DNA of 64,000 nt from an uncultured bacterium (GCA_963845185.1 CAWJRG010000009.1:608001-672000), one strand, 5' to 3'; counted from the stretch's first letter, positions 8,826-64,000 are shown. Program-made: numbers and translations. The notes: generated by a model not told the origin, from the sequence alone.

Positions 8826-10040
8826 ATGATAGAAGAATTACACGGTGACCTTCTAAGGCTGCTTGAAAACCTTGAAGGCGAAAAATTAAAAAGCATCCCT
8901 CCGTATGTTTTTGGAGTGATAAAAAAAGAAATAGCCAAACTGCGCAAGGCAGGAGAGGACGTAATTGATTTTTCAATGGGAAATCCCGACGGCGCCACGC
9001 CCCAGCATATAGTTGACAAGCTTATAGAAGCGGCACAAAACCCGAGAAACCACAGGTATTCGGCCTCAAGGGGAATTAATAAATTAAACGCGGCCATAGC
9101 CGATTATTACAAAAGGCGTTTTAACGTGGACCTTGACCCAAACACCGAATGCATAACTACAATAGGCTCAAAAGAGGGCATTTCGCACCTGATGTACGCC
9201 ATAATAAACAGGGGGGACAGCGTAATAGTGCCGACGCCATGCTACCCGATACATGCTTATGCAGTAACATTGGCAGGAGGAAACGTAATATCTGTGCCAA
9301 TAGTCAAGGGCAAGGATTTTTTTGAGGATATGGTAAGAGTTGTCCAGAACATGTGGCCAAAACCTAAAATAATACTTTTGAATTATCCGAACAATCCGAC
9401 TACTGAAGTCGTGGACCTGGATTTTTTCGAGAAAATTGTCGACTTCGCTGTTAAAAATAACATAATAGTCCTTCATGACCTGGCATATGCCGAGCTTTAC
9501 TTTGACGGCTACGTGCCGCCAAGCTTTTTGCAGGTGCCGGGCGCAAAAGAAATAGGCGCGGAGTTTTACACGCTTTCAAAGACATATAACATGCCCGGAT
9601 GGCGGGTAGGATTCCTTGTCGGCAATAAAAACATAATCAAGGCCCTGGAAAAGATCAAAAGCTACCTTGATTACGGCATGTTCCAGCCCATACAGATAGC
9701 AGCCATACATGCCTTAAACAGCTCGGACGAGTGCGTAAAGGACATCAGGGAAAAATACAGGCAAAGGCGCGATGTGCTTGTGGATGGGCTGCAAAAATTG
9801 GGCTGGGAGGTAGAGAAGCCGAAAGCCACAATGTTTGTCTGGGCAAAAATTCCCGGGCAGTACAAAGACATGAAAAGCACTGATTTTGCAATGAAGCTTT
9901 TGAAAGAAGCAAAAACCGGTGTTTCTGATGGCTCTGGTTTCGGCGAGGGCGGCGAAGGATTTGTAAGGTTTGCTTTAATAGAAAACGAGCAGAGGACAAA
10001 ACAGGCTCTAAAGAACATGAAACAAATGATGGAAAAATAA
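8826..10040 (+). CDS. Class I/II PLP aminotransferase, AlaC-like (start probably 8817 or 8826, not 8670)
   Basis: PPYVF, MGNPD, HRYSASRGI, SKTYNMPGWRVG, FALIENEQR. Confidence 0.9.
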   Translation: MIEELHGDLLRLLENLEGEKLKSIPPYVFGVIKKEIAKLRKAGEDVIDFSMGNPDGATPQHIVDKLIEAAQNPRNHRYSASRGINKLNAAIADYYKRRFNVDLDPNTECITTIGSKEGISHLMYAIINRGDSVIVPTPCYPIHAYAVTLAGGNVISVPIVKGKDFFEDMVRVVQNMWPKPKIILLNYPNNPTTEVVDLDFFEKIVDFAVKNNIIVLHDLAYAELYFDGYVPPSFLQVPGAKEIGAEFYTLSKTYNMPGWRVGFLVGNKNIIKALEKIKSYLDYGMFQPIQIAAIHALNSSDECVKDIREKYRQRRDVLVDGLQKLGWEVEKPKATMFVWAKIPGQYKDMKSTDFAMKLLKEAKTGVSDGSGFGEGGEGFVRFALIENEQRTKQALKNMKQMMEK

Positions 10041-47394: not shown

Positions 47395-48481
47395 ATGATA
47401 AAACAACAAAAAGGACAGGTTATGAAACCGGAAAAAAATAAAGACATTATCACGCAATCATATAAAAAGGCCATAAAGGATATAAAAAACAAGATACTGC
47501 GGGCGAGGCAAAACGCCGTTGTTTCGGTAAATAAAGAGCTTATATTTTTGTATTGGGAAATAGGGAATATAATACTTCAAAAACAGGAAAACGAAGGATG
47601 GGGCGCGAAAGTAATAGACAGGATGTCCACCGACCTGTCGCGTGAATTTGCCGATATGAAGGGTTTTTCTGTGCGGAACCTTAAATACATGCTCAAGTTC
47701 GCGGAAGAAAACAAGTACCGCGCAATTGTGCAACAGGTTGTTGCACAATTGCCATGGGGAAGCAATATCGTACTTCTGAATAAACTCAACAGCCAGGCCG
47801 ACAGGCTATGGTACGCGAAAAAAGCTATAGAAAACGGCTGGTCAAGAAATGTCCTTGCGCATCAGATAGAGTCCGGACTGTATAAAAGGCAGGTATCCGG
47901 AAGCAAGACGCATAATTTTCGCAAGACACTGCAGGGAACACAGTCCGACCTGGCTCATGAAACCATCAAGGACCCTTATATTTTTGACTTTTTAAATATG
48001 TCCGAACAGGTTTCTGAAAAAGAGCTCGAAACCGGGCTAATAAACCATCTCGCATCATTTTTGCTCGAACTCGGCAAAGGTTTTGCCTATGTCGGCAGGC
48101 AATACCATCTGGAAGCAGGCGGGGAAGATTTTTTATATAGACCTGCTTTTTTATCATCTTGAACTCCGCTGTTATGTTGCGATAGAATTAAAAACTGGAA
48201 AGTTTAAGCCCGAATATGCCGGTAAAATGAATTTTTACCTGACTGCCATAGACAGCCTGCTGAATAAACCCGGAGACAACCAGGCGATAGGCATAATACT
48301 ATGCAAGGACAAAAATAAAGTGATAGCAGAGTACTCGCTGCGCGATATAAAGAAACCGATAGGCATATCGGCGTATAAGACAGCAACAAAGATAAAAAAC
48401 AAACTGCCGGATATTAAAATAATGGAAAAAGAAATGGATAATTATTTACTTAAAGAAGAAGCGGCGAAATACGGGAAATGA
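47395..48481 (+). pseudogene. YhcG/DUF1016 PD-(D/E)XK protein, frameshifted at a T6 run (48129-48134)
   Basis: GWGAKVI, KDPYIFDFL, LLELGKGF; removing one T restores EDFYIDLLFYH. Confidence 0.88.
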
Positions 48482-48693
48482 ATCCCGGAATGTTTTTTTA
48501 ATTGAAAATTGGAAACTTATAGCGTTTATTTTGTCGAGCCAAAGGCGATAACAAAATATTACGCTATCAAGTACCCGCTCAAGTCTTGAGCTTGCGAAAG
48601 ACAAGAGGTATTGGGAATTATTAAAAGCCAAAGGAAAGTCCTGAGCCCAGCCCTGAGCTTGCCGAAGGGGATGGATTTTGAGGTATGAGGATT

Positions 48694-49401
48694 ATGAATA
48701 AAAATAACGATAACAAGACAAAAAGAGCTGATACAAGAGCCGCTGAAGCATGCAACATCAGCGGGATAGTAAAAGGGAAATCAGGCGATTTTAAAAGCGC
48801 CATCAGGGATTTTAACAAAGCCATAAAATACGACCCCGGATACGCGCCTGCTTACATCAACCGCGGCAACGCGAAATATTATCTTGCTGACTTTAAAGGC
48901 GCCATTGAGGATTGCATGCAGGCAATAGAGCTTGAACCAAGATCCGCGGCTGCTTATAACAACCTCGGCAATGCCAGAGGCGCTTTAGGCGATTGCAAGG
49001 CGGCGATTAAGGATTATGATAAGGCAATGGAACTAAACCCAAAGGACGCGGAATTTTGCTATAACCGGGGCACTGTTAAATATGCTTCAGGTGATTTTAA
49101 AGGCGCTATCGGGGATTGCAACAGGGCAATAGAATTAAATCCGGAATACGCGGATGCTTATAACAACCGGGCCACAGCAAAAGACAGGCTGGGCGACTTC
49201 AAAGGAGCAATTGAGGATTATACCAAAACAATCGGGCTAAAGCCGGAACTGGCCCGTGCTTACAGCAACCGCGGGCTCGTTAAAAATAAACTGGGCGATA
49301 AGCGGGGCGCGATTGAGGATTTAAACATGGCTGTGGAGCTTGGGGATACCGGAGCATATGAAATAATCAAGCAAATTGAGGGGAAATTGGATGGGAAATG
49401 A
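48694..49401 (+). CDS. Tetratricopeptide repeat protein
   Basis: Six AYxNRG...GDxKGAIxD..KAIELxP units. Confidence 0.92.
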   Translation: MNKNNDNKTKRADTRAAEACNISGIVKGKSGDFKSAIRDFNKAIKYDPGYAPAYINRGNAKYYLADFKGAIEDCMQAIELEPRSAAAYNNLGNARGALGDCKAAIKDYDKAMELNPKDAEFCYNRGTVKYASGDFKGAIGDCNRAIELNPEYADAYNNRATAKDRLGDFKGAIEDYTKTIGLKPELARAYSNRGLVKNKLGDKRGAIEDLNMAVELGDTGAYEIIKQIEGKLDGK

Positions 49402-49524
49402 ATCCCGGATTGTTTTAATGAATGCGCCGGGAATAATGTGTTTGGTGTTTTGAATCCCCGATACCGAACAGAGAATTTATGTTAAAATAAGTATTGAAAA
49501 TGAAAAAGTGACAGGAGAAAAACA

Positions 49525-50565
49525 TTGAAATCATTTATTAAAAAAGGTAGAGAGTTGTCGATACCGGCAGGCGCGGTATGGCTCATGAACGACATTTCCG
49601 AATTCAAGGGCAAACAGGAGCTTTACGCAAAGCAATCCCCGCAGGTTTTAAAGGCATTGATCGAGCGGGCTTTGATAGAAAGCGCGGAGTCTTCGAACAG
49701 GATAGAGGGAATAACAGTCGAGCATTCGCGCCTTAAACCGCTTGTGCTTCAGAACGCGAAGCCTAAAGACCGGTCAGAAGAGGAAGTTGCGGGATACAGG
49801 AAGGCGCTTGATTACATCCATAAAAATCACGCGTCAATAGAAATAACCCCTGATGTCGTAAAAGAACTTCATGCCATGGCGCAGGCCGGGGCGTGGGACG
49901 CGGGAAAATGGAAGGAAAAAGACAACGACATTATTAAAAAATATCCGGACGGCAGGAGCGAAGTAATATTCAGGCCTGTTTCCGCAAAAGATACGCCGGA
50001 GGCGATGAACAACCTTTGCAGGGCTTACTCTCATTCCGTGGACCAGTTAAAATACCCGCCGCTTTATGCCATATCCTGTCTTATCCTTGATTTCCTGAGC
50101 ATACACCCTTTCAGGGACGGCAACGGCAGGGTGTCGCGACTTCTGACGCTTCTTGCGCTTTATAAATATGGTTTTAACGTCGGCAAATACATAAGCCTCG
50201 AGCGCATTACAGAGGAATCAAAAGAAACATATTATGAAACTTTAAGTAAAAGTTCAGAGGGCTGGCATGAAGCAAAGCATGATGTGGAGCCGTGGCTGTT
50301 TTACTTCCTGGGTACGGTTTTGGCTGCTTACAGGGAATTTGAGCAAAGAGCGGGGAATGTTAAGGCCGCGCGCGGAGCGAAGACAGAGATGATAATAACG
50401 GCCATAAAGGAGTTTCCCGGAAATTTTAAAATAAGCGACATAGAACGCGCCTGCCCGTCTGTGAGCAGGGATATGATACGCACAATTTTAAGAAAATTAC
50501 AGAAAAACAAAGTCATAAAAAGCATGGGAAAGGGCCAATCTGCAGAGTGGAAACGAATAGGGTAA
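49525..50565 (+). CDS. Fic family protein
   Basis: HPFRDGNGRVSR Fic motif; C-terminal wHTH-like segment. Confidence 0.93.
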   Translation: MKSFIKKGRELSIPAGAVWLMNDISEFKGKQELYAKQSPQVLKALIERALIESAESSNRIEGITVEHSRLKPLVLQNAKPKDRSEEEVAGYRKALDYIHKNHASIEITPDVVKELHAMAQAGAWDAGKWKEKDNDIIKKYPDGRSEVIFRPVSAKDTPEAMNNLCRAYSHSVDQLKYPPLYAISCLILDFLSIHPFRDGNGRVSRLLTLLALYKYGFNVGKYISLERITEESKETYYETLSKSSEGWHEAKHDVEPWLFYFLGTVLAAYREFEQRAGNVKAARGAKTEMIITAIKEFPGNFKISDIERACPSVSRDMIRTILRKLQKNKVIKSMGKGQSAEWKRIG

Positions 50566-50832
50566 TAACCGCGTGAATGGGGTAATGAATGGGGTAATAA
50601 CATAAACGTGGTAATAAGTAGCCTGAACATAGTAATAAACGTGGCAATAACAAATAAACGCCTTAAAAATAAAGCAAATAATAGCTAAATAGGTAATATG
50701 TGTTTAATTAGGTATTTAATTAGGTGTTTTGAATCCCAAATCCGAGTTGGGTCAATTAATTGAGATTGACAATTGAGAATTGAAAATTTTTTGAATGCTG
50801 GATTTTGAGGTATAATGATTTAGGAGGAAAAA

Positions 50833-51636
50833 ATGAAAAATTGGCTAGTATTGCATGATATGTCAGCTTTTTCAACTCATCCAGATTATATTGGGAAAGA
50901 AGAAAGACAAGAAGGGAAAATTTCTAAAATTAAAAAGGGAGATAACGTTATTTATTATTGTACAGGTGATATGATAATAACAGGAATTTACAAAGTTGTT
51001 TCGGATTTGCAACATTGGAAAAAAGACCCGTTCTGGGAAGGTGGCCATGTTGTATATAAAATAAAACCGATTATTGAAGCACATGGGCCACAATATATTG
51101 GTTTAAATAACATGTTAAAAGAGATTTCTCTTAATGCATTCCCAAAGGGGAAAGTAGAAGGTATAAAACTTAAAGGCAGGACTGCTATTCCAATATCAAA
51201 GCATGATTTAAAAGCAATAGAAATGTATATAAAAAATTACAAAGGAAAATCAGAAAAATTATTTGCCGGAGTATCAAATGATGAAGGACTTGGGGAACCG
51301 ATGGAACTTGAGGTTATGGGCTATGCACCTACTTCAGAGGCAGGTGTTATTGTGTTGTTTGCTCATTTTTTAAAAAAACTCGGTTTTGAAAGGATTGAGT
51401 TTATTAGGGCTGGATTTCCGGATGCCTGTGTTCTTAAAAAAGTTGGCGAAAAATTTGAAAGAAAATATATTGAATTCGAATTTCAGTCTTCCTCTTTTAG
51501 AATTCATATTAAAAATCCCAAGCATAAGAATATTAAATGCGATTACATAGTATGCTGGGAAAATGATTTTATTAATTGTCCTGTACCTGTTATTGAATTA
51601 AAAACCGAATTGCAAAAATTAAGGATATTGAAATGA
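50833..51636 (+). CDS. EVE-like domain + PD-(D/E)XK-type nuclease; candidate modification-dependent endonuclease
   Basis: N-terminal W...KIKKGDNVIYY...GIYKVVS; C-terminal FPD...IEFE..S...CDYIVCW. Confidence 0.6.
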   Translation: MKNWLVLHDMSAFSTHPDYIGKEERQEGKISKIKKGDNVIYYCTGDMIITGIYKVVSDLQHWKKDPFWEGGHVVYKIKPIIEAHGPQYIGLNNMLKEISLNAFPKGKVEGIKLKGRTAIPISKHDLKAIEMYIKNYKGKSEKLFAGVSNDEGLGEPMELEVMGYAPTSEAGVIVLFAHFLKKLGFERIEFIRAGFPDACVLKKVGEKFERKYIEFEFQSSSFRIHIKNPKHKNIKCDYIVCWENDFINCPVPVIELKTELQKLRILK

Positions 51637-51728
51637 TTATAAAAATTTTTAAAAATCATTTCCAAACGTAAAGGATTTGATGAAAATACATTAATTTGAT
51701 AGAATGTAAACAAAAGTAAAGGAGCTTT

Positions 51729-53630
51729 ATGGACGGGAAATCGGAAGACGTGCTAAAAGACAGGATAAAAGAGCTGAAAAAGCTGTTCCCTGAAGCGGTG
51801 ACAGAGGGGAAAGTAGACCTCGAGATGCTCAAGGCAACACTCGGCGGGGAGATAAATACAGACAACGAGCGGTATGTGCTGAACTGGGCCGGGAAAGCAG
51901 AGGCTTTCCGCGTACTGCAGACGCCCACCACGGCCACGCTCGCGCTTGCGGAAAAAGAATCAATAAATTTTAACAATACTGAAAATATTTTTATCGAGGG
52001 GGAAAATCTTGAAGTCTTAAAAATCCTGCAAAAATCATATTACGGCAAAATAAAGATGATATATATAGACCCGCCGTATAATACCGGAAGCGACAGCTTC
52101 ATATATCCCGATAAGTTCGCGGAAAGCAAGGATGAATATTTGAAAAGGATAGGGGAAAAAGACGAGGAAGGATACCTGCTGAAAGAGGGGCTTTTCAGGA
52201 AAAACAGCAAGGAAAACGGCCAGTTCCACAGCGTGTGGCTGTCCATGATGTACCCGCGCCTTTTCCTCGCCCGCAACCTGCTCCGCGACGACGGCGTGAT
52301 ATTCATTTCCATAGACGACAACGAAGTGCATAATTTAAGAATGATGATGAATGAGATTTTTGGTGAGGAGAATTTTGTTGCTGTTTTTCCATGGCGCAAA
52401 AGGACAGCAAAAAGTGATGTACCATTTGGCGTTTCACAGGATTTTGAATGGATATTAATGTATGGGAAAGGTGATTTTTGGGCTGGATATTCCCTAGAAC
52501 GCAAATATTACAAATCAAAAGATTATAAAGACGGATGGAGACTAGCCGATTTAACAACACAAAGAACAAAGGAAGAACGACCTAATTCATTTTTCACCAT
52601 GATAAATCCAAAAGATAAGAAGAAGTACGAAGCCAATCCAAACAGAGTTTGGGGAGTTACCAAAGAAACTTTCAAAGATTACTATGAAAAAGGAAAAATT
52701 GTATTCCCGGGAGATTATGATTTTTTAAATATTTCAATACCTGCATTTAGAGTTTTTGAAAGCGAAGATAAGGAAAAGAATCTTAAAAAATTCGGTTCGG
52801 AAGAAGCTTTCCGAACGGTATCAACTTTATTACCTCCGGATATTGGCAGGACAGAGGACGGCACTAAAGAAATTACCGAACTTTTTCAGAGTAAAGTATT
52901 CTCATTTCCTAAACCACAATCATTAATTAAGTATTTGATTAGCATAATACCTGAAAACGATTTTACGATTTTAGATTTTTTTGTCGGATCGGGAACAACC
53001 GCACATGCAACTTTTGAACTCAATAAAGAAGATGGCGGACAACGTAATTTTATTTGTATTCAATTACCGGAAAAGACAACAGAAGACACTGAAGCACTTA
53101 AAGAAGGATATAAAACTATCGCTGAAATCGGTAAAGAGCGCATACGCAGGGTAATAAAGAAAATAAAGGAAGAAAAGAAAAGCAATCCTGACCTTTTTTC
53201 CAAAGACAAGCCTGAACTTGACCTTGGATTTAAGGTATTCAAACTTAAAGAATCAAACTTTAAAGTCTGGCGGAGTGATGTGGTGGAGAATGAAAAGGAT
53301 TTAAACAGGCAGATGGAGATATTCCAGGAGCCTGTCAAACCAGGCGCGGAAATGAATAATATGATGTGGGAACTGCTGGTAAAAAACGGGTATGAACTGA
53401 CGACAAAGGTAGAAGAACGGGAACTCGCCAAATGCCCGTGTTTCGTCGTCGCCGAAGGCGAACTTATTGTCTGCCTCTCCAAACTCACTGAAACCGCAGT
53501 CAAAGAGATTTTGAAGCTGAAACCAAAGAAAGTCATCTGCCTTGACTCTCTCTTTGAGCGTAACGATAAGCTGAAAACCAACACCGCCCTGCAAATGAAA
53601 GACGCAGGGGTGGAGTTGAAGACGATATGA
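51729..53630 (+). CDS. mod: Type III RM methyltransferase subunit
   Basis: ERYVLNWAGK, IYIDPPYNTG, DFFVGSGTT, DLGFKVFKL. Confidence 0.95.
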   Translation: MDGKSEDVLKDRIKELKKLFPEAVTEGKVDLEMLKATLGGEINTDNERYVLNWAGKAEAFRVLQTPTTATLALAEKESINFNNTENIFIEGENLEVLKILQKSYYGKIKMIYIDPPYNTGSDSFIYPDKFAESKDEYLKRIGEKDEEGYLLKEGLFRKNSKENGQFHSVWLSMMYPRLFLARNLLRDDGVIFISIDDNEVHNLRMMMNEIFGEENFVAVFPWRKRTAKSDVPFGVSQDFEWILMYGKGDFWAGYSLERKYYKSKDYKDGWRLADLTTQRTKEERPNSFFTMINPKDKKKYEANPNRVWGVTKETFKDYYEKGKIVFPGDYDFLNISIPAFRVFESEDKEKNLKKFGSEEAFRTVSTLLPPDIGRTEDGTKEITELFQSKVFSFPKPQSLIKYLISIIPENDFTILDFFVGSGTTAHATFELNKEDGGQRNFICIQLPEKTTEDTEALKEGYKTIAEIGKERIRRVIKKIKEEKKSNPDLFSKDKPELDLGFKVFKLKESNFKVWRSDVVENEKDLNRQMEIFQEPVKPGAEMNNMMWELLVKNGYELTTKVEERELAKCPCFVVAEGELIVCLSKLTETAVKEILKLKPKKVICLDSLFERNDKLKTNTALQMKDAGVELKTI

Positions 53631-54442
53631 AGGAGTTAATAAATATAGTAAATACGAAATATAAAGAATTTGATATAAATAAATTAGATTATAATAAACC
53701 GTATTTTATTGTTTCTCCAAAAGACGATCTGGAAGGAATAATTTTGGAGAATGAAACAATTATGTTAAAATATAAAGAAATGTTTTCGTTTAAAATGCCA
53801 ACTGGTAATATTTGTAATTTAAGACAATGGATAATTTTATATAACAAAGATATAAACGATATAACATATTTTAGAAATTATTTCTATGATAACAATTGTA
53901 ATCCATATGCAATAGCTATGCTGTTTAAATATTTGCGTTATAATGTTAAAGAATTAACAAATTTAACGCAATTTCCACCATTGAATTTTAAAAAAACTAA
54001 AGAAGAACAATCAAATGCAATGGATCTTGTTATACAAAAGGCTGAACCTTCGGATTTAATATTTGTATATGATAGAAAAAGTGGAATTTCTAAGTATATT
54101 AGAAAAATAGATAGATGTATGTGGTCGCATTGCGGGGGAATCAATATGAATAAAGAAATTATTGAAATGACAACTGCCGGAATTAGAAGGGGTAGTTTTG
54201 AAGAATATAGAAATGAAAATATAGATTTAGGATTGTATAGATTGAAACAACAAATTTCATTTGAGAGTAAGGAAAAGATGCATGATTTTTCAGAAGATAA
54301 ATTAAGGAAACAAACAAGATATAACTGGAAGGGTGTTGTTAAACTTTATTTGAAAAAGAAATTTAAAATTCCTATTGACGCAGGTCCGTCCCCGGCGGAT
54401 ATAATATACGGTAATAAATTGCAATTAATTGCATATGCATAA
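53627..54442 (+). CDS. Protein with C-terminal permuted papain-like (YiiX/YaeF-like) domain
   Basis: EPSDLIF...WSHCG...IIEMT..GI...GLYRL...YNW...SPADI; ATGA overlap with mod. Confidence 0.6.
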   Translation: MKELINIVNTKYKEFDINKLDYNKPYFIVSPKDDLEGIILENETIMLKYKEMFSFKMPTGNICNLRQWIILYNKDINDITYFRNYFYDNNCNPYAIAMLFKYLRYNVKELTNLTQFPPLNFKKTKEEQSNAMDLVIQKAEPSDLIFVYDRKSGISKYIRKIDRCMWSHCGGINMNKEIIEMTTAGIRRGSFEEYRNENIDLGLYRLKQQISFESKEKMHDFSEDKLRKQTRYNWKGVVKLYLKKKFKIPIDAGPSPADIIYGNKLQLIAYA

Positions 54443-54484
54443 TAGTTATATATCCATATCGCTCTTTGAACAAATCAATGAAGA

Positions 54485-54781
54485 GTGAGGTTGCGGACAA
54501 TGATTGAAAGAGAAGATTTAAAGGATATTAAAAATACAGTTGCTCATTTAAATGATTTAGCTAAAGTTTTTCACAAATTTAATGTAGAAGATTGGTCAAT
54601 ATTATGGTATGCCCGTAATAAACGCGCTGGTGAAAGTCTTGAAAATCTATACTTTGTAAAAGATAAGGATTTCATTAATGCTGTTGAAAGTGTTTATCGT
54701 GAAGGAAGACAAATAGCCGTAGATTTATCATATGATTTACCGCTCATTGATCAAATCGAAGTTTTCCCTAAGATATTCTAA
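54485..54781 (+). CDS. Hypothetical ORF, possibly the frameshifted 5' part of the TIR gene
   Basis: Overlaps 54732-55745 in another frame; no clear RBS. Confidence 0.4.
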   Translation: MRLRTMIEREDLKDIKNTVAHLNDLAKVFHKFNVEDWSILWYARNKRAGESLENLYFVKDKDFINAVESVYREGRQIAVDLSYDLPLIDQIEVFPKIF

Positions 54782-55745
54782 TTATTTAGATCATATGAAT
54801 AATTATTTTGACTTAGTTGATAAAATTGCACCCGAATTTTTAAAATGGGAACAAATAATTAATGCGAAAAGGGATTATGAAGTAGATTATGGCGCGATTG
54901 ACGATATGATAAAACTTTTTAAAGCACAGTTAAATTTAATAAAGGGTTTAAAAAATGATTTTGAAAATATTAAGAACTCAGAAAGATTTAAAATTGAAAA
55001 CGATTCAAAAATAATTGAAAATGTACAAAATACAAATCAAAATAATAAATCTTTAATTTTTATAAGTTATAATGTAATTGATAAAGTAATTGCGGGTGAA
55101 ATATTTGACTTTTTGAATACTTTTTTTGAAGTTTTTTTAGCTCATGAAAAAATTAAATCCGGCGTTGATTGGCAAGAGGAGATAATACTTAATTTACAAA
55201 AAGCAGATATATTTATGCCTATTATAACTAAATCATTCAAACAGTCGGATTGGACTGATCAAGAATGCGGAATTGCATATTTATTAGCAAATTTAAAAAA
55301 CACAAAAATACTTCCGCTTAATAAACCACAATCACATAAAAAAAATCTTCCATATGGATTTATAAGTAAATTTCAATCTTTTCCTTTTACTGATATGAAA
55401 AAACAAGAAGAGCAGATTGAATTTTTTGCAAAATTATTAGAATTAATCAATAAAAACGAAAAAAAACGTTTATTTGATTTGCTTGTTTTAAAACTTACAG
55501 GATGCAATACAAAAAACGACTGTACAAAATATACAAGAATGCTATTACACTTTGATATAACAGAATATAGACTTAATAAGATTTTTGAAGCTTTTAGCAT
55601 GGATATTAGTAAAAAATATTCTAAAAGTATAATAAAAATATTTGAGGATTTTATTAAAAACAAACATATCGAATTTTTAGATAAATTTAAAAAATTCAAA
55701 GCTTCTATTTTTAAACAAATTAGCATAAAAAATGGTAAAACATGA
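54732..55745 (+). CDS. TIR-domain protein
   Basis: IFISY...VFLAHEKIKSGVDWQEEI...SDWTDQECGIA with the catalytic-position Glu. Confidence 0.85.
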   Translation: MIYRSLIKSKFSLRYSNYLDHMNNYFDLVDKIAPEFLKWEQIINAKRDYEVDYGAIDDMIKLFKAQLNLIKGLKNDFENIKNSERFKIENDSKIIENVQNTNQNNKSLIFISYNVIDKVIAGEIFDFLNTFFEVFLAHEKIKSGVDWQEEIILNLQKADIFMPIITKSFKQSDWTDQECGIAYLLANLKNTKILPLNKPQSHKKNLPYGFISKFQSFPFTDMKKQEEQIEFFAKLLELINKNEKKRLFDLLVLKLTGCNTKNDCTKYTRMLLHFDITEYRLNKIFEAFSMDISKKYSKSIIKIFEDFIKNKHIEFLDKFKKFKASIFKQISIKNGKT

Positions 55746-55796
55746 AACTACATTTTGATTCCAATCAGGCATATCAATTAGAGGCGGCTGGAAAAG
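55742..55796 (+). repeat. res 5' stub 1 (45 bp) plus GCTGGAAAAG tail
   Basis: Encodes MKLHFDSNQAYQLEA; 39/45 identical to 59679-59723. Confidence 0.92.
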
Positions 55797-55956
55797 ACCG
55801 TGGTGAGTGCGACGTGGGACGTGGAACGGAAAATATAAACATTCGGAATTCGGGATTTGGAATTTGGTATTCGGGATTTGGGATTTGAAAGACACATTCA
55901 GCGTTTGGTATTCAAGAATTTGAATCCGGAATTCCAAATGCAGAATCGGAGTTACA

Positions 55957-57399
55957 ATGACAAAAAAGGAATTAATCAATAAAATCCAGGACATAGAGTG
56001 GGAGGATTTTGAAGTAAAAGAGGCAGCGGGAGGTTTGCCTAAATCCTCATGGGAGACTGTGAGCGCTTTTGCGAATACCGCCGGCGGGTGGATTGTATTC
56101 GGAGTTTCCGGCATGGGCTCAAAATACGCGATTACCGGAGTGGATAAGCCCGGGAAACTGGAGCAGGACTTTTTAAACACCCTTCGCGGGGATAAATTTA
56201 ACAGGAAAATCAGCGTTAAGTGCAAAAAATATAAAATTGAGGATAAAACCGTACTGGGATTTTACGTACCTTCGGCGCAGGGCAAAGACAAGCCGGTCTA
56301 TTTTAATTCCAAGGCAAATACTTTCATAAGGACAGGAAGCGGCGACCAGCGGGCGACAAGCGAAGAGATAGACGCCATGTACAGGAACTCTTCTTTCGAC
56401 AAAAAAGACGAGCAGCCGACGCGCTTTACGATAAAAAGCCTTGATGCCCGTACGATAGAACGCTTCAGGACATATCTGAAAAACATAAATCCCGGGCACA
56501 GATATAACAGCTTAAAAAATGAGGAATTTCTTGAAAAGCTGAGGGCGGTTTCACGGGGCAGGGTGACAATAGGCGGGCTTTTGTTTTTTGGGAAAGAAGA
56601 AAGCATAAGCGAATATGCGCCGGATTTCAGGATAGATTATCTGGAGATTTCCGGGACATCATACGGGGACGCGCCGGAACGCTACAGCTACAGGCTTCCT
56701 GAGGAAATCAATATTTTTAATTATTATTTCGCCGTAATGGACAGGCTGATGAGAAAAATAGATATTCCTTTCAAACTCAAAGGAATGGCAAGGGACGAAA
56801 ACCCGCCGCAGTTGACCGCGATAAGGGAAGCGCTTGTAAACCTGCTGATGCACAGCGATTATTTCAGCGGCGCAAAGCCGAGGATAAGGGTATTCACCGA
56901 CAGGATAGAGTTCTTTAATCCAGGCTCTTTGCCGAAAGAGATAAAATACATTTTAAAGGAAGATTTTTCGCTTCCGAGAAACCCGACCATAGCCAGGTCG
57001 TTCAGGATGGTACAGCTTGCCGAAAGCATAGGCTCGGGATTTTATAAAATGATAAACGGCTGGAAATCCTACTACAAAATAAAACCTGAAATAACAGGCG
57101 ATTTTGATTATTATAAAATCGTATTTAAATTTGAATCCGCGGCTGATGATGCTGTAAATGTCCCTGTAAATGTCCCTGTAAATGCCCCTGTAAATGCCCC
57201 TGTAAATGCCCCTGTAAAAAGATTGGAAATGATAGTAGAACAAATGAAAGTTAACGACAGGATAACATTTGTGCAATTAGCAAAGTTTCTTAAGGTAGAT
57301 GTGACTACAATAAGGCGAAATGTCTCAAAATTGAAAAATGAGGGGCGAATAAGGAGAATAGGGCCGGATAAGAACGGAAGATGGGAAGTGCTTAAATGA
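55957..57399 (+). CDS. AlbA_2 (Schlafen-like) + HATPase_c_4 + HTH protein
   Basis: ETVSAFANTAGGWIVFGV, AIREALVNLLMHSDY, C-terminal RIGPDKNGRW; 12-bp tandem repeats at 57152-57218 (VN[V/A]P). Confidence 0.88.
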   Translation: MTKKELINKIQDIEWEDFEVKEAAGGLPKSSWETVSAFANTAGGWIVFGVSGMGSKYAITGVDKPGKLEQDFLNTLRGDKFNRKISVKCKKYKIEDKTVLGFYVPSAQGKDKPVYFNSKANTFIRTGSGDQRATSEEIDAMYRNSSFDKKDEQPTRFTIKSLDARTIERFRTYLKNINPGHRYNSLKNEEFLEKLRAVSRGRVTIGGLLFFGKEESISEYAPDFRIDYLEISGTSYGDAPERYSYRLPEEINIFNYYFAVMDRLMRKIDIPFKLKGMARDENPPQLTAIREALVNLLMHSDYFSGAKPRIRVFTDRIEFFNPGSLPKEIKYILKEDFSLPRNPTIARSFRMVQLAESIGSGFYKMINGWKSYYKIKPEITGDFDYYKIVFKFESAADDAVNVPVNVPVNAPVNAPVNAPVKRLEMIVEQMKVNDRITFVQLAKFLKVDVTTIRRNVSKLKNEGRIRRIGPDKNGRWEVLK

Positions 57400-57450
57400 A
57401 ATTACATTTTGATGCCAATCAGGCATATCAATTAGAGGCGGCTAGAAAAG
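57396..57450 (+). repeat. res 5' stub 2 (45 bp) plus GCTAGAAAAG tail
   Basis: Encodes MKLHFDANQAYQLEA; 43/45 identical to stub 1 and 39/45 to res. Confidence 0.92.
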
Positions 57451-57503
57451 CAGGGGTAAGGGGGAAGGGTGGAACAGATAAAAGCGGGGGAAGTGGTAAG
57501 GGG

Positions 57504-57523
57504 CCCTTCGACAGGCTCAGGAT
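57504..57523. repeat. CTTCGACAGGCTCAGG-type REP-like unit; relatives at about 1428-1447, 16224-16248, 48638-48670 and 58497-58517
   Basis: Shared CCTGAGC....(T/C)CGAAGG core in either orientation. Confidence 0.6.
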
Positions 57524-57635
57524 GAAGAAAAGCAGTGGTAAGTGGGGATGGGAAGAGAAAGAAGTTTCTGGTTTCAAGTTTCTGGGTATTGAAAAGATAT
57601 TTGCTGTGACATAAATTACAGATAAAATAATAGAT

Positions 57636-57790
57636 ACCCCACGGCTAAAGCCGTGGTACTGTAGTCCTACGACTTCGTCGTCGGACTCTTAACAAAGGGC
57701 TAACGCCCTTTGAAACCTCTCAGCAAGGTTGGATGTTTGATTTTAGTCTGCGTTCATTCAACCACGGGCAAGCCCGTGGTCTTCTGAACG
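57636..57790. mobile_element. Non-coding IS200/IS605-like miniature element
   Basis: CCACGGCTAAAGCCGTGG and CCACGGGCAAGCCCGTGG hairpins bracketing about 110 bp without an ORF. Confidence 0.6.
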
Positions 57791-57819
57791 CATTTCTGAT
57801 AAACTAACGGAGTAAAACA

Positions 57820-58344
57820 ATGGAAAAACAACAGTTTGAAAAGCTCGATAAGCTTGCGGACAGGATATGCGATAAATTCGCGGAGCTGGATAAAAAGGGC
57901 GCGTTTTCCGGAATAGAAGAGGAAATGAATAAAATTTGCTCTGAACTGCCGGAGAAATACGACATCACATTCCGGTTTACGCTTGGTATCTTCGACGAGG
58001 AAAAAGAAAATGAGATTCAGCTTCTTGAAACAGGCATAAGCTGTTTCGGGCAAAATACCGCGTACCGCCTGCAGGGCACGGGGTCAACGCCCCATTCATA
58101 CCTCGTAAACGGCAAAATATCAAAAATTCCGCATGATTATTGCCCTGCATGCTGGGGCCGGTGGGATTTTAAGCTGAAAAATAAAACATGCCCTGGGTGC
58201 GGGGCAGTGATGGGCAAGGAAGTAAAACTCATGCTCGACTCGGACGTCTGCCCGTCATGCGAAGACGGCAAAATCACGCGGAACAACCCGAAATGCGGCA
58301 AGTGCGGGTTTGAAGTGGACGGAACTACGGTATACTGGGGATGA
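57820..58344 (+). CDS. Hypothetical protein with four CxxC motifs (double zinc ribbon)
   Basis: CPAC, CPGC, CPSC, CGKC; GGAG RBS. Confidence 0.75.
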   Translation: MEKQQFEKLDKLADRICDKFAELDKKGAFSGIEEEMNKICSELPEKYDITFRFTLGIFDEEKENEIQLLETGISCFGQNTAYRLQGTGSTPHSYLVNGKISKIPHDYCPACWGRWDFKLKNKTCPGCGAVMGKEVKLMLDSDVCPSCEDGKITRNNPKCGKCGFEVDGTTVYWG

Positions 58345-58611
58345 CGCCGCGTAGCGGCGAGAGATTTGAACAGTAGAAAGGTGAATTGAAGACAGTGGTA
58401 AGTGATAGAGATAAGGGGGAAGTGGTAAGGGGTATGGGGCAGAAGAGCAAGTTTCTGGGGTTTCTGGTTTCTAAATGAGGAAAAATGAGCGAAAGAATCC
58501 TGCGACAGGCTCAGGACTAACAAGTAAAAGCGTGCGGCAGAAAGAACAGGAAAAGGCCGATTCAGTTATCCGGAATTTCCGGAATACTGATGTTTATGAG
58601 GAGCGTGAAAC

Positions 58612-59682
58612 ATGAATGAAAAAAGCGGGCTGCCCGCGAAAACAGAGTTTCTTTTATACACGACAGAGGACGGGAAAACAAGAATCCAGACCCGCATGCA
58701 GAATGAGACTGTGTGGCTGACACAGCAGATGATGGCGGATTTATTCCGGACTACAAAGCAGAATATCAGTTTGCATATTCAAAATATATTAAAAGAGGGC
58801 GAATTGGGCGAGGGGGCAACTGTCAAGGATTTCTTGACAGTTCAAAATGAGGGCGGAAGGGATATCAAAAGAAACATAGAATATTATAATCTCGACATGA
58901 TTATATCCGTCGGATACCGCGTAAAAAGCGTCATAGCCACGCAATTCCGCATATGGGCCACGCAAAGGCTGAAAGAGTATATCATAAAGGGATTTACCAT
59001 GGACGACGACAAACTGAAGCAGGCAGGCGGCGGGAACTATTTCGAAGAACTGCTCGCCCGCATACGGGATATAAGGTCTTCGGAAAAAATATTCTGGCGC
59101 AAGGTGCTGGATATATACGCCACAAGCATTGACTATAACCCGGATATTGATTTATCAAAGCAGTTTTTCGCGACAATACAGAATAAAATGCACTGGGCGG
59201 CCCACGGGCGGACCGCAGCTGAAGTTATCTACGGCAGGGCCGACGCCGCAAAACAAAACATGGGGCTGACAAACTGGGTAGGCGCGGGCATACGAAAGGA
59301 AGAGACTGAAATCGCCAAAAATTACCTTAACGAAAAAGAACTGGATATGCTGAACAGGATAGTGACGGCTTATCTTGAGTTTGCCGAGGTCCAGGCCTTG
59401 AACCGCAGGCCCATGACAATGAAAGACTGGATAGCCAAGCTGGATGATTTTTTAAAGCTTTCAGGCAGGGATATACTGACGCACGCAGGGACAATAAGCC
59501 ATGATAAAGCCCTGAAAAAAGCCCATGAGGAGTACGAAAAATACAGGGCGGCGCGGATGGACGCGCCGTCTGAGGCTGAAAAGGATTTTCTGGAAGCGGA
59601 AAAAGAAATAAAAAGAATTGAGAAAACGGCAAAGAATAAAAAAATAAAAAATTCAAAAAAGAAGAACAAAGGGAAAAGATGA
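58612..59682 (+). CDS. RhuM family protein
   Basis: TVWLTQ, YNLDMIISVGYRV, QFRIWAT, QNKMHWA, AKNYL. Confidence 0.92.
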   Translation: MNEKSGLPAKTEFLLYTTEDGKTRIQTRMQNETVWLTQQMMADLFRTTKQNISLHIQNILKEGELGEGATVKDFLTVQNEGGRDIKRNIEYYNLDMIISVGYRVKSVIATQFRIWATQRLKEYIIKGFTMDDDKLKQAGGGNYFEELLARIRDIRSSEKIFWRKVLDIYATSIDYNPDIDLSKQFFATIQNKMHWAAHGRTAAEVIYGRADAAKQNMGLTNWVGAGIRKEETEIAKNYLNEKELDMLNRIVTAYLEFAEVQALNRRPMTMKDWIAKLDDFLKLSGRDILTHAGTISHDKALKKAHEEYEKYRAARMDAPSEAEKDFLEAEKEIKRIEKTAKNKKIKNSKKKNKGKR

Positions 59683-62315
59683 AATTACATTTTGACTCCA
59701 ACCAGCAGTATCAATTAGAGGCGATGAAAGCTATTACAGATATTTTCGAAGGCCAGCCGATGAACTCCAGCGATTTCGAGTTCTCGGCGGACGTGGGCGG
59801 GTCGCTGCTGTACAACGAATTCGGCGTGGCGAATAAGCTCGTCCTGGACGACAGGCAAATAAAGAAAAACCTCAGCGTGGTCCAAAAACGCAACGGGATA
59901 CGGGACATACCGGAATTCGCGGGCATGAACTTTTCCGTGGAAATGGAAACAGGCACGGGCAAAACATACGTTTATTTGCGCACGATATACGAGATGAACA
60001 AGCTTTACGGCTTCAAGAAATTCATAATCGTGGTGCCGGGCATAGCCATACGCGAAGGAGTATTGAAAAACCTCGAAATCACACACGAACATTTCCAGGA
60101 GCTGTACTCAAAGACGCCGTGCAAATACTTTGTATATGACTCCTCGAATGTCTCGAACCTGCGCAGTTTCGCGCTGAACAACTCAATCCAGATACTCGTC
60201 ATAAACATAGACTCGTTCGCGAAGGACGAAAACGTCATAAACAAAGTCAATGACAGGCTGACAGGCAAAAAGCCGGTAGAATTCATACGCGGGGTAAACC
60301 CGATAGTCATAGTTGACGAGCCGCAAAACATGGAGACCGAGATAAGGAAGCGCGCCATAGCGAACCTGAACCCGCTGTGTACGCTGCGGTACTCGGCTAC
60401 ACACACAAACCTTTACAACCCTGTTTACAGCCTGAACCCTGTGAAGGCGTATGACATGGGGCTGGTAAAGCAGATAGAAGTGGACTCGGTATATACCGAG
60501 AACGACTTTAACCGCGCCTATGTGGCGCTCAAATCGCTATCATCCACAAAAACACGCACAAGCGCGAAGCTGGAAATAGACATAGAAACAGAAAACGGGA
60601 CAAAGCGAAAGCTGGTGACTGTGAAAGTGGGCGATAACCTGCATGACCTGTCCGGGAAAAGGGAAATATACAGCGATAATTTCACTGTGGAGCGCATTGA
60701 CCTGAAAAAAGAAATTGTAGGGTTCGCAAACGGCATAGAGATAGCTAAAGGCGAGGCAAAGGGCGGGCTGACTGACGAGGTAATGAAAGTGCAGATAGAA
60801 AAGACAATACAGGAGCATTTGGAAAAAGAGAAAAGATACAGGGACAAGGGGCTCAAAGTCCTGTCCCTGTTTTTCATAGACAGGGTAGCGAACTACAGGA
60901 CGCCTGATGGGCAAAAAGGCAAAATAGCGCTGTGGTTCGAGGAATCATATAAAAAACTCATAAAGAAACCCGAATATAAAAGCCTGCTGCCGTATAAGGT
61001 GGAGCAGATGCATAACGGATATTTTGCGCAGGATAAAAAAGGTAACTTTAAAGATTCTTCGGAAGGCAGGGATACCCAGGACGATGATAAGGCATATCAG
61101 TTAATAATGCAAAAAAAAGAACAACTTCTTGATATAAACGAGCCCCTGCGTTTTATATTCAGCCACTCTGCCCTGCGCGAGGGATGGGACAACCCGAACG
61201 TGTTCCAGATATGCGCGCTCAGGGAAATATCCACACAAAGGCAAAGGCGGCAGACAATAGGCAGGGGCATGCGGCTCGCGGTGGACCAGCAGGGAATGAG
61301 GAACCAGGAAAGGGACATAAACAGGCTCACTGTCATAGCGGGCGAGAGTTTTGAGGAGTTTGCAGACGGCCTGCAAAAGGAAATTGAAAGCGAGTGCGGG
61401 GTAAAGTTCGAAAACAGGATAAAGGACAGAAATAAAAGAATATCAGTGAAGCTGAAGAAAAACTACGCGCTCGATAAAAATTTCATGGACATGTGGGACA
61501 AAATAAAACAAAAAACAACTTACAGGGTGGAGTTTGACACTGAAAAACTTGTTGAAGAGGGCGTAAAGACCATGAAGGAGATGCAGACAGTAAGTAGGCC
61601 TGAGGTTAGGTCTGAAAAAAATTATATGTTAATGGATAAAAAAGAAGGAATCCATGGCGATTTATTAGGTGAGGAAGTGCATCATATGGACACGAGCGCA
61701 ATGGATATCCCGGATATATACGCATTCATAGAGGATAAGACATGGATTACACGGAGCAGTATTTACAGGATTTTAAACGAGTCGGGAAGGTCGGCTGATA
61801 TACTGAAAAACCCGCAGCTTTTTCTCGACATGGCCGCTAAGCAGATAAAAGACGCGCTGAACAGGCTCATGGTGGACGGGATAAAGTACGAGAAAATAGG
61901 CGGGGCAGAGTATGCGATGATGTTGTTTAAGGATAGCGAAATAGAGTCCTATATAGATAACCTCTACAAAGTTAAAAATGAGGATAAGACAATAACCGAT
62001 TACGTGGAGGCCATATCCGGGCCCGAACTGCAATTCGCAAAGGACTGCGACAGCAGGGAGGATGTGGCGTTTTACATCAAACTGCCGCGCTGGTTCAGGA
62101 TACAGACGCCAATAGGCGACTATAACCCTGACTGGGCGCTGGTTTTCAAGGGCGAAAAAAAGCTGTACTTTGTGGCAGAGACAAAGTCAAGCCTTGACCC
62201 GAAAGAACGCAGGCAGGATGAGAACGACAAGATAAAATGCGGCGAGGCGCACTTCGCCGAGTTCCCGGACGTGAAGTATAAGGTAGTGAGGAACGTGGGG
62301 GAAGTGAAGGAATAA
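59679..62315 (+). CDS. res: Type III RM restriction endonuclease subunit
   Basis: METGTGKT, DEPQ, RYSAT, LREGWDNPNVFQI, YNPDWA...AETK. Confidence 0.95.
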   Translation: MKLHFDSNQQYQLEAMKAITDIFEGQPMNSSDFEFSADVGGSLLYNEFGVANKLVLDDRQIKKNLSVVQKRNGIRDIPEFAGMNFSVEMETGTGKTYVYLRTIYEMNKLYGFKKFIIVVPGIAIREGVLKNLEITHEHFQELYSKTPCKYFVYDSSNVSNLRSFALNNSIQILVINIDSFAKDENVINKVNDRLTGKKPVEFIRGVNPIVIVDEPQNMETEIRKRAIANLNPLCTLRYSATHTNLYNPVYSLNPVKAYDMGLVKQIEVDSVYTENDFNRAYVALKSLSSTKTRTSAKLEIDIETENGTKRKLVTVKVGDNLHDLSGKREIYSDNFTVERIDLKKEIVGFANGIEIAKGEAKGGLTDEVMKVQIEKTIQEHLEKEKRYRDKGLKVLSLFFIDRVANYRTPDGQKGKIALWFEESYKKLIKKPEYKSLLPYKVEQMHNGYFAQDKKGNFKDSSEGRDTQDDDKAYQLIMQKKEQLLDINEPLRFIFSHSALREGWDNPNVFQICALREISTQRQRRQTIGRGMRLAVDQQGMRNQERDINRLTVIAGESFEEFADGLQKEIESECGVKFENRIKDRNKRISVKLKKNYALDKNFMDMWDKIKQKTTYRVEFDTEKLVEEGVKTMKEMQTVSRPEVRSEKNYMLMDKKEGIHGDLLGEEVHHMDTSAMDIPDIYAFIEDKTWITRSSIYRILNESGRSADILKNPQLFLDMAAKQIKDALNRLMVDGIKYEKIGGAEYAMMLFKDSEIESYIDNLYKVKNEDKTITDYVEAISGPELQFAKDCDSREDVAFYIKLPRWFRIQTPIGDYNPDWALVFKGEKKLYFVAETKSSLDPKERRQDENDKIKCGEAHFAEFPDVKYKVVRNVGEVKE

Positions 62316-62497
62316 TGAGGAGCAGGCCGCGCTCATGGGGGAAGGGATGGCGACTGGATAAGGCAATTATCAATTAAGAATTGTCAATTTTCAATAACAT
62401 GAATACCAAAGCAAATGCCGAATAGTCGGATTTATAATTAAAGCATAGATGTAAAAGTCTGCCGGCTTTTGTGCCGGTGAAAACGAAAGGGATAACA

Positions 62498-63283
62498 ATG
62501 TACAGGAAAATTTTTTGTTTTTTTGCAGTTGTTTTTTCAGTTTTACCGGCAGTGGCTTTTGCCGCAGGCTCTGACACGGCCCCGGACAGCGGGCAGGCAG
62601 TAACATCCGCGGTTCCTGCCGTGCAGGCGGCTCCTGTTCAGCAGTCCGCGCCTGTGTCTGACCAGTCATTTTACGCGGACAAGTTTTGCATTGCGTATAA
62701 CGGAGGACTGGATTTCAGGTGGTGGTTTGGAAAAAACTGGGGGCTTGAGATACCTATATCCGGCTCCACGACCGGCTCGCTTACCAAAGCCGACATCAGC
62801 GAGGGCGCACAGAATTCTTTCTACTGGAACGCTGTGACAGGGCTGAATTTTATTTTCCCTTTGCAGAACATATACGGGATTAACTTTAACTTTATCCCGG
62901 GTATTTACCTGAGCGGCAGCGAAAACCTTTACAGGAATGCTCCGAGTTACTGGAATTCCAACAATATATTTACTTATTATGAGCAGGATAGCTACAATTA
63001 CAGTTTTTCAGGAGGAATATCGCTGGGGCTGGAAGCGGAGGTTTTCCCGCATAATATATGCGACAAAATACCGCAGAACATCAGTTTCGGCAGCAAGTTT
63101 GCATTCAACTGCCTTTACAATTACGCTGAGTCGTGGAATCACTATCCGGGAATGAACCAGCAAATCCAGCAGTCGAACCCGTATTCGTCATTCACAGCTT
63201 TCCAGCGCAACGAAGGAATAATCACAAACTTCAGCATAGGCGGCAGTACCTGGAGCGCGCTGTATGTGAGATATTACTTCTGA
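62498..63283 (+). CDS. Secreted protein, probable outer-membrane beta-barrel
   Basis: Signal peptide ending AFA, aromatic-rich strands, C-terminal RYYF. Confidence 0.65.
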   Translation: MYRKIFCFFAVVFSVLPAVAFAAGSDTAPDSGQAVTSAVPAVQAAPVQQSAPVSDQSFYADKFCIAYNGGLDFRWWFGKNWGLEIPISGSTTGSLTKADISEGAQNSFYWNAVTGLNFIFPLQNIYGINFNFIPGIYLSGSENLYRNAPSYWNSNNIFTYYEQDSYNYSFSGGISLGLEAEVFPHNICDKIPQNISFGSKFAFNCLYNYAESWNHYPGMNQQIQQSNPYSSFTAFQRNEGIITNFSIGGSTWSALYVRYYF

Positions 63284-63325
63284 TCAAGAGTTGCTTTAGC
63301 CGGCAGTCAACAGGCGGCTGGGAGG

Positions 63326-63452
63326 ACTTCGGAGGGTCGGAAGGGCAGAAGAGCGGAAGGTTAGAGGATCGGAGGGGCAGAGGGTCGGAAGAGCAGAGGA
63401 ACGGAAGAGCGGAGGAACGGAAGAGCGGAGGAACGGAAGAGCGGAAGAATGG
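63326..63452 (+). repeat. Degenerate 8-bp purine-rich tandem repeat (about 16 units)
   Basis: CGGAAGAG/CGGAGGAA-type units; a shorter relative at 5345-5394. Confidence 0.85.
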
Positions 63453-63691
63453 CAAAGGCGTAAGGCAATTATCAATACCTCTTGTCTTGCGCAAGCGCAA
63501 GACTTGAGCGGGTACTTTATAGCGTAATATTTTGTCTGCGCCTTCGGCTTGACAAAATAAACGCTATAAGTTTTCAATTTTCAATGAAAGAAGTAAAAGA
63601 ATTATCTATCCTCAGATTCAAGGCCATAATGCAACTTGATTTTATCATAACAGATGTTATAATTATGACGAGATTTGAAAGGGACGCTCAA

Positions 63692-63982
63692 ATGACTCAG
63701 TTACAGAAACAAACAGTAAAGAAACTGCTCTGGGACTATGATTTTACAGAAGAAGAATTCATGGATATCCTGAACGGGAAAACCGAACTGGGCAGCTTCA
63801 ACAGAAAATGGGCCGTGAGAAGGGCTGTTGAAGGGCTGAATTATTACGACCTTCTCGAGGTTGTAGGGCTCAAGACGCTTGCCGAGGTCTGGCCGGAGAT
63901 AAGGCAGACTTTCCGCATAAAAAACATTAAAGACGGAATTGATTATGTTTTACGAAAATACACTGTATCCGCTTCAAGATAA
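63692..63982 (+). CDS. Putative antitoxin partner of an AbiEii-type toxin
   Basis: KKLLWDY motif; overlaps the next ORF. Confidence 0.6.
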   Translation: MTQLQKQTVKKLLWDYDFTEEEFMDILNGKTELGSFNRKWAVRRAVEGLNYYDLLEVVGLKTLAEVWPEIRQTFRIKNIKDGIDYVLRKYTVSASR

Positions 63983-64000
63983 ACTCCTCGGCACTATAGA
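63945..64000 (+). CDS. 5' start of a probable AbiEii-family nucleotidyltransferase (partial)
   Basis: MFYENTLYPLQDKLLGTI resembles AbiEii-family N-termini; only 18 codons visible. Confidence 0.45.
   Translation, partial: MFYENTLYPLQDKLLGTI

Follow-up and report, generated by a model that had tools for sequence, protein, structure and literature searches.

Fragments of the res start punctuate defence-type cargo inside a type III restriction-modification locus

How does a type III restriction-modification (R-M) locus come to hold seven open reading frames (ORFs) between its mod and res genes, and why do copies of the start of res recur among them? The question is raised by a locus on a 64,000-nucleotide (nt) stretch of DNA from an uncultured bacterium (GCA_963845185.1, CAWJRG010000009.1:608001-672000), called the window below; positions are counted from its first base, and all features of the locus are on the + strand. 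The mod gene (51729..53630) encodes a type III DNA methyltransferase of 633 amino acids (aa), and res (59679..62315) encodes a full-length type III restriction endonuclease/helicase of 878 aa. The two genes do not follow each other directly: 6,049 nt intervene, arranged as three cargo blocks (53627..55745, 55957..57399 and 57820..59682) with a fragment of the res start, termed a stub, after each of the first two (stub 1, 55742..55796; stub 2, 57396..57450). A preliminary description of this DNA had read the interval as an array of discrete blocks punctuated by such fragments. Comparison with relatives bears this out; blocks of this kind occur elsewhere as sole cargo, and a parallel array exists in another locus, L118. 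The arrangement is genuine, and it recurs in other loci.

ATG-anchored copies of the res start lie at 55742, 57396 and 59679 (repeat family D3, checked in the sequence), the third being res itself. Over the first 45 nt, stub 1 and stub 2 agree at 43/45 positions and either stub agrees with res at 39/45; the resident gene is also the nearest res head, the sampled relatives reaching at most 38/45. Both stubs diverge from res after ...TTAGAGGCG (nt 45) and continue with GCTGGAAAAG in stub 1 and GCTAGAAAAG in stub 2, so that they are alike over 55 nt in total, that is, 45 nt of res start and ten more bases. Past nt 55 the spacers are unlike, with a local alignment score of 16 against a shuffle mean of 16.6 (193/300 shuffles reach it). 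The stops of the TIR, AlbA and RhuM genes each overlap a res-type ATG by 4 nt (ATGA), at 55742, 57396 and 59679, respectively. The repeat finder, the sequence and the ORF coordinates thus agree with the three 45-bp copies, the identical stub breakpoint and the ATGA overlaps reported earlier. Relative to res, stub 1 has three synonymous and one non-synonymous codon differences, and stub 2 has two of each. Stub 1 opens an ORF of 48 aa (55742-55888) and stub 2 one of 72 aa (57396-57614). A search of short proteins with the 48-aa ORF retrieved only itself, which is uninformative as short ORFs are seldom called. No res-start copy beyond these three was found in the organism's own genome (3.5 Mb, 11 contigs, 99.4% complete), and the inverted-repeat list of the window has no pair at the stubs.

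To place these fragments, 164 res-relative loci (designated by L and a number) were collected, four of them from same-phylum genomes, 80 from species-representative genomes and 80 from metagenome contigs, and three scans were made for further res starts. The first, a position-specific score built on residues 1-16 of res, gave extra copies in L030, L109, L114, L164 and L173 and none in shuffled loci. The second probed the upstream 9 kb with the locus's own first 21 nt (at most three mismatches) or 27 nt (at most five); it recovered both stubs of the window and detected copies in L019, L030, L106, L109, L114, L118 (two), L127, L164 and L165, with no match on the reverse strand and none with the reversed probe. 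The third, a loose regular expression for the res start, had a high background (27 matches on the minus strand versus 39 extra ones on the plus strand), and its matches were retained only if they also matched the locus's own res head or the stub of another locus. It added L174 and L121, the latter with the same 17-mer and downstream sequence as L127; a candidate in L138 from the loose pattern was dropped as doubtful. In total, 13 stubs were found in 12/161 other loci, and the stubs are therefore not unique to this assembly. The gene preceding a stub mostly abuts or overlaps the stub ATG as it would a true res. It should be mentioned that an ORF just after res in L030 (12663-12950, minus strand) has a C-terminus that looks tyrosine recombinase-like, a likeness recognised by eye only.

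The point at which similarity to the resident res ends varies widely from locus to locus: 17 nt in L127 and L121, 24 in L019 and L174, 25 in the first stub of L118, ~29 in L165, ~33 in L106, ~34 in the second stub of L118, ~43 in L164, 44 in L114, 45 in the window (twice), ~55 in L030, ~69 in L173 and ~170-190 in L109. No sequence is common behind the breaks, except between related arrays. The stubs of L118 and L127, for instance, are followed by stretches alike at 30/34 nt, yet the next genes encode YhcG in the former and AlbA in the latter. The fixed junction through which the preliminary description had the blocks captured is thus not upheld, the breakpoints in the 12 other loci running from 17 to ~190 nt with nothing common behind them. 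Its prediction that donor-type loci would carry GCT.GAAAAG just after the end of mod failed in all 124 relatives with a mod end; none of the scattered matches to GCT[AG]GAAAAG in relatives follows a res-type start or the stop of mod.

The differences between the stubs and the resident res heads fall at codon positions 1, 2 and 3 in the numbers 40, 19 and 66 (13 stubs, 651 nt; chi-square p 1.7e-6), counts to which L109 and L173 contribute most and in which the two stubs of the window are not independent. The same 13 stubs have 37 synonymous and 52 non-synonymous codon changes. Because the differences are biased by codon position, the stubs fit best as probable pieces of other coding res alleles and not as decayed local duplicates, in agreement with the earlier suggestion that they derive from functional res alleles.

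A second kind of fragment mirrors the first. A profile of the 3'-terminal 75 nt of 113 mod genes, searched against the mod-res intervals, revealed copies of the mod tail inside the interval of nine loci at E<0.01 (L129, L019, L048, L038, L047, L029, L126, L100 and L116). All nine are on the + strand, and the best minus-strand match has an E value of 2.3. The copies reach the mod stop codon and begin at varied points, some of them with in-frame stops. They lie at block boundaries, between YhcG and AAA_15-DUF4276 in L048, between Bro-N and AAA+-subtilase in L116, and between an unknown gene and TIR in L029. The gene after such a scar begins at the scar's stop, just as first cargo genes do at the genuine mod. 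The tail scar and AAA+-subtilase block of L116 is found again in L129 at 82% identity, and can be aligned to L108's true mod tail. A scar is thus retained and moves along with the block to which it belongs.

In the window itself, the profile search gave no copy of the mod tail in the interval. An impression by eye that a mod 3' end lies behind the stubs was withdrawn, since Smith-Waterman comparison of the two post-stub stretches with 124 mod tails gave scores of 21 and 23, against means of 22.8 and 22.2 for the best scores of shuffled sequences over these tails. The profile matched behind neither stub of the window, and the best match among all 15 post-stub segments had an E value of 0.57 (0.7 bits).

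The composite arrays string together blocks that make up the whole cargo of other loci. L118 has the order [Eco57I-like methyltransferase and partner], stub, YhcG, stub, Bro-N, res. Its methyltransferase pair is the sole cargo of L111, YhcG that of L013, L046, L154 and L166, and its type of Bro-N that of L023. The methyltransferase pair is followed by a stub of 24 nt in L019, 25 nt in L118 and ~190 nt in L109, each time with different downstream cargo. For the window, RhuM is the sole cargo in L077, L090 and L091, where it also has a 4-nt overlap with res, and AlbA is the sole cargo in five loci. It is noted that arrays also decay: further down its array, L127 holds truncated YhcG and Bro-N remnants (7846-8616), as well as two small ORFs of one family at 7248-7535 and 8629-8895 (minus strand).

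Whole alleles of the interval are exchanged. Five pairs of loci (L016/L153, L108/L111, L104/L109, L097/L098 and L029/L169) have res DNA 90-96% identical yet unrelated cargo. Between the metagenome contigs L115 and L116, identity is 99.5% upstream and, starting with the first base of res, 99.87%; everything between mid-mod and the res start is either 84.5% identical or unmatched, and in L116 this replaced stretch includes the extra tail scar and AAA+-subtilase block. From this pattern, the variable portion of mod is transferred together with the cargo as one unit, one crossover lying at the res head; a change of methylation specificity seems here to have come with the change of cargo.

Both a mod end and a res start are present in 125 loci, the window included. 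The gap between them is at most 150 nt in 25 loci, 150-600 nt in three, 600-2000 nt in 37, 2-4 kb in 45 and more than 4 kb in 15, so that 97/125 have a gap of at least 600 nt. The gaps contain 213 ORFs of at least 70 aa, of which 210 lie on the operon strand, and these form 94 sequence clusters. Pfam was run on 79 cargo proteins, mostly cluster representatives with some ORFs of stub-bearing loci. An AlbA_2 cluster with or without HATPase_c_4 is the commonest (37/213 ORFs), followed by an 890-aa SMC/ABC-like ATPase (19), the YhcG/DUF1016 nuclease (9) and Bro-N (9). Further cargo includes AAA_15/AAA_21 ATPases with DUF4276, an Eco57I-like methyltransferase with a 220-aa partner, PDDEXK_3, Fic, RhuM, KilA-N, TIR, GmrSD, SIR2 with HerA, Shedu SduA and KAP NTPase, among others. 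Many of these families are defence-linked, and an anti-phage function of the cargo may be supposed. A 4-nt overlap between res and the final cargo gene is present in 38 of the 98 cargo loci; in another 29, the two genes are at most 15 nt apart or have a 1-nt overlap. The preliminary description had held that random breakpoints and invariant cargo in relatives would speak against it; the scattered breakpoints do so, and the highly variable cargo speaks for it.

We consider it probable, though far from settled, that in this clade the mod-res interval is a recombination-driven hotspot of defence-type cargo, in which occasional joins, homologous on one side and illegitimate on the other, stack blocks. 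Strains would differ in the cargo held between the conserved 3' end of mod and 5' end of res, each block being coupled to these gene ends via overlapping stop and start codons. In the usual event, homologous recombination in both flanking genes would swap block for block. In a rarer event, homology would be available on one side only and the other end would be attached by an illegitimate join some tens of bases into the flank, with stacking instead of exchange as the outcome. Such a join would leave a short scar: the left block would be followed by a res head, or the right block preceded by a mod tail. The two mirror-image kinds of scar, their shortness, their scattered ends and the kept native stop-start junction would all follow from one-sided illegitimate joins within conserved flanks. 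Selection may favour such joins, as a join downstream of the TGA in ATGA would preserve the stop of the left gene and a kept mod tail would preserve the ribosome site of the right gene. The window would then be a stack of three blocks and two res-head scars with res left intact. The order of arrival would depend on the anchor: with the anchor in res, the scar would be the recipient's res head and the newest block would adjoin res, and with the anchor in mod, the scar would be the end of the donor fragment and the newest block would adjoin mod. The core of the earlier idea, serial capture of allelic cargo from mod-cargo-res loci, is retained in this proposal, without capture through a fixed junction.

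The one-sided join is likened to homology-facilitated illegitimate recombination, in which one homologous arm is combined with an illegitimate join (PMC3240628, as far as its accessible text describes it). Such a process would place foreign DNA beside a conserved anchor, with the joins near the edge of homology, and would explain short scars of variable length made with no recombinase.

Several observations weigh against the proposed one-sided joins. Independent illegitimate joins do not predict that both stubs of the window have the same breakpoint and ten common bases, nor does homology-facilitated illegitimate recombination alone predict this repeated identical junction. The 55-nt identity would call for a further event, such as recombination or duplication via the scar. 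Breaks at nt 43-45 in the window, L114 and L164, which are unrelated loci, form an unexplained cluster. A res head beside a mod tail at one junction was seen for 0/15 stubs. We infer the joining step, rather than observe it, because the sampled loci include no pair that shows a locus before and after a scar arose; L115 versus L116 displays the homologous crossover at the res start and not the illegitimate join, and no junction's parental alleles were found. The sample also matters: the relatives were picked by res similarity as the best 80 of ~600 pattern matches per collection, some loci are near-duplicates so that the frequencies are rough, and the closest res relative among them has 70% protein identity, with own-lineage alleles absent. 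Among the 20 nearest genomes listed, the closest share only the order with this organism.

As to the second step, the scars are direct repeats of the res start and would provide short homology for later reshuffling, which is our proposed reason for the shared 55-nt junction. This junction could plausibly have arisen by recombination or unequal exchange via the res-head repeats, after which the spacers, being prone to slippage, would have turned over. A broader reading is that mod and res ends are portable recombination handles of a cassette system with no recombinase of its own, each block carrying a piece of mod tail or res head along; this we regard as possible and rather doubtful. If it is true, each scar would be a new short homology site, and arrays would grow, shrink and swap blocks across distant bacteria, an integron-like exchange using the host's general recombination. 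The 55-nt linker before two cargoes in the window, and the 30/34-nt linker before YhcG in L118 and AlbA in L127, are first hints of such re-use.

A deletion history offers a different way of explaining the stack. According to this explanation, which we hold to be unlikely, complete mod-cargo-res alleles stood in tandem and the stretch from res to the next mod was deleted via one fixed junction, with newcomers adjoining mod. Such deletions could leave both kinds of scar, res heads and mod tails; the blocks do occur as the sole cargo of complete alleles, and block 1, which adjoins mod, is the most deviant in composition. However, random internal deletions would give a different picture from the one seen, in which all res stubs are at most 190 nt of a 2.6-kb gene and the mod tails are short. 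The 10-mer predicted after mod, in 0/124 loci, the missing mod-tail signal behind the stubs of the window, and a junction that is not fixed across loci also count against it.

Could the res start be an attachment site instead? In a site-specific cassette system, the 45-55 nt of res start would serve as the site and circular cassettes, each bringing a copy that restores res, would be inserted there by a recombinase acting in trans, like integrons or Xer/dif modules. We judge this very improbable. The identical breaks of the two stubs in the window with ten bases common behind them, the breaks at nt 43-45 in three unrelated loci, and the small, co-oriented cassettes, each coupled to a res-type ATG, are what it would lead one to expect. 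In contrast, the other breakpoints (17, 24, 24, 25, ~29, 33, 34, 55, 69 and ~190 nt) have no common motif behind them, the mirror-image mod-tail scars misfit a single attachment site, and no inverted-repeat pair lies at the stubs. The genome has three tyrosine recombinases (PF00589), on contigs C5, C6 and C8, and none on C9, the contig of the window; serine recombinases (PF00239) gave 0 matches genome-wide. The ORFs from 36 kb to the end of the window and 20 kb beyond, which were listed and not all searched, include none that is recombinase-like. Given the shared junction, the L118/L127 linker and the cluster at nt 43-45, we still allow a site-preference model a low probability.

A third alternative, for which we see equally little likelihood, derives the stubs locally: each block would have entered the 5' end of the resident res, either with duplication of a long target or through slippage, after which the upstream copy would have decayed. 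The closeness of the stubs to the resident res head (39/45, against at most 38/45 in sampled relatives) agrees with this. Unlike neutral decay, however, the differences are concentrated at synonymous or third positions; furthermore, the stubs resemble each other more than res, and the gene before each stub abuts it as at a native cargo-res junction. An assembly artefact caused by the repeat is extremely improbable, given a repeat of only 55 nt with copies differing at three positions, a genome 99.4% complete in 11 contigs, and the same kind of structure in 12 unrelated assemblies.

The one-sided joins that we favour may be compared with known systems. Defence genes embedded in the operons of type I R-M, BREX, DISARM and Hma systems, 96.7% of them co-oriented, have been described in a preprint, according to which how embedding arose "remains to be explored"; in its accessible part it offers only a "genomic sink" idea (bioRxiv 10.1101/2024.01.29.577857). 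DarTG2 lies between hsdS and hsdR at a site called "a potential recombination hotspot" in the accessible text of PMC12255303, and PrrC in EcoprrI is given as an example of embedding. As in these operons, co-oriented defence-type cargo is nested here between restriction-system genes, and the cargo families described in the accessible part of the preprint overlap with those here (GmrSD-like, ABC ATPases, RhuM/PDC-S05). Unlike the operons as they are described there, the host operon here is type III (mod-res), the blocks are stacked, and the joins are scarred by the flanking genes. Our full-text searches, with supplements and subscription journals outside their reach, retrieved no text that deals with cargo in the mod-res interval of type III systems or with flank scars. 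The nesting of defence genes in defence operons is known; we found no description of flank scars or of the type III site.

Integron cassette arrays also hold small, serial, co-oriented and mostly promoterless cassettes at one site, with a repeated element between them and a content that varies strongly between relatives. Here, in contrast, no integrase is adjacent, the repeat is a coding fragment of a neighbour gene and not an attC palindrome, the breakpoints vary with no fixed crossover, and the scars are of two mirror-image kinds. Phase-variable type I hsdS shufflons switch specificity by means of inverted repeats and a local recombinase. They likewise have partial copies of a restriction-system gene within the locus, whereas the repeats here are direct, consist of 5' res fragments between unrelated cargo, and have no recombinase nearby.

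Nested defence genes have been used to discover new immune systems, and how the genes enter is an open point in the 2024 preprint as far as its accessible part goes. Flank scars are a physical footprint of joining events and mark block boundaries. They indicate an origin of the blocks in allelic loci, speak against a dedicated recombinase, and make the joining process testable through one-arm donor DNA, RecA dependence and scar length. They also provide a working rule for dividing embedded arrays into functional units. With cargo in 97/125 sampled loci of the clade, embedding is extended to type III systems.

The assignment of the flanking genes is firm. Mod matches Pfam N6_N4_Mtase (1.2e-32) and PADLOC MTase_III (1.4e-192, over residues 3-629). 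Res matches Pfam ResIII, DEAD and RE_endonuc (5.5e-34) as well as PADLOC REase_III (2.8e-290), and its residues 1-876 align to relatives. Both members of a type III system are therefore present, the beta-class methyltransferase and an SF2 helicase-type ATPase with a C-terminal endonuclease domain. Every cargo ORF between them is co-directional with these two genes of one system, and the cargo is of defence-linked families. The labels given to the cargo in the preliminary description hold for TIR, AlbA-ATPase-HTH, Zn-ribbon and RhuM; YiiX-like is reduced to sub-threshold leads.

Block 1 begins with an ORF of 271 aa (53627-54442) whose ATG shares an ATGA overlap with the mod stop according to the ORF coordinates. 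The YiiX-like lead for this ORF consists of Pfam Peptidase_C92 at an E value of 0.14 and Atlas scores of 0.80-0.82, all sub-threshold. It is followed by an ORF of 98 aa with no match (54485-54781) and by the TIR-domain protein (54732-55745; Pfam TIR_2 3.1e-14, PADLOC ThsB-like 3.2e-9). The G+C content of block 1 is ~24-31% versus ~42-51% across the remaining array, which shows a foreign origin and gives no date of entry.

After stub 1, a low-complexity spacer with short tandem motifs (TTCGGGATTTGG-like; repeat finder family D5) extends over 55797..55956. Block 2 is a single gene, for a 480-aa protein with AlbA_2 (Schlafen-type), HATPase_c_4 and winged-helix (HTH) parts assigned by Pfam. Within this gene, a 12-nt tandem repeat, CTGTAAATGYCC, occurs six times at 57140-57230, between the ATPase-like part and the HTH; the tract is possibly a length-variable linker.

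Block 3, assigned by Pfam and PADLOC, comprises a double-zinc-ribbon protein (57820-58344), whose match to Pfam DZR_2 (1.1e-5, 25.6 bits) is slightly below the curated cut-off of 27 bits, and a RhuM-family protein (58612-59682; Pfam Virulence_RhuM 1.9e-114, PADLOC PDC-S05 1.9e-147). Upstream of the zinc-ribbon gene there is a hairpin-rich element of ~170 nt (57639..57803). Two more copies are present in the genome (C4:3-182 and C10:86740-86853, reverse strand), upstream of unrelated genes and, in one case, at a contig end; most of the predicted pairs are invariant among the three copies. The element has no Rfam match at E<=1, and an Rfam search over 48000-64000 gave nothing relevant, with a single chance match at 0.89.

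Directly upstream of mod, a SoFic-like Fic protein and an EVE-domain ORF occupy 49525-51636, the latter in a low-G+C block (~29-35%). From these two ORFs, the cargo hotspot may sit in a larger defence neighbourhood. A small ORF at 42447-42782 matches the HepT RNase toxin family with 45 bits, under the 60-bit cut-off. Purine-rich intergenic filler with an 8-nt periodicity or short tandem motifs is found at 57451-57600, 58380-58470 and 63332-63467; pieces of it recur genome-wide, and it looks like a habit of this organism.

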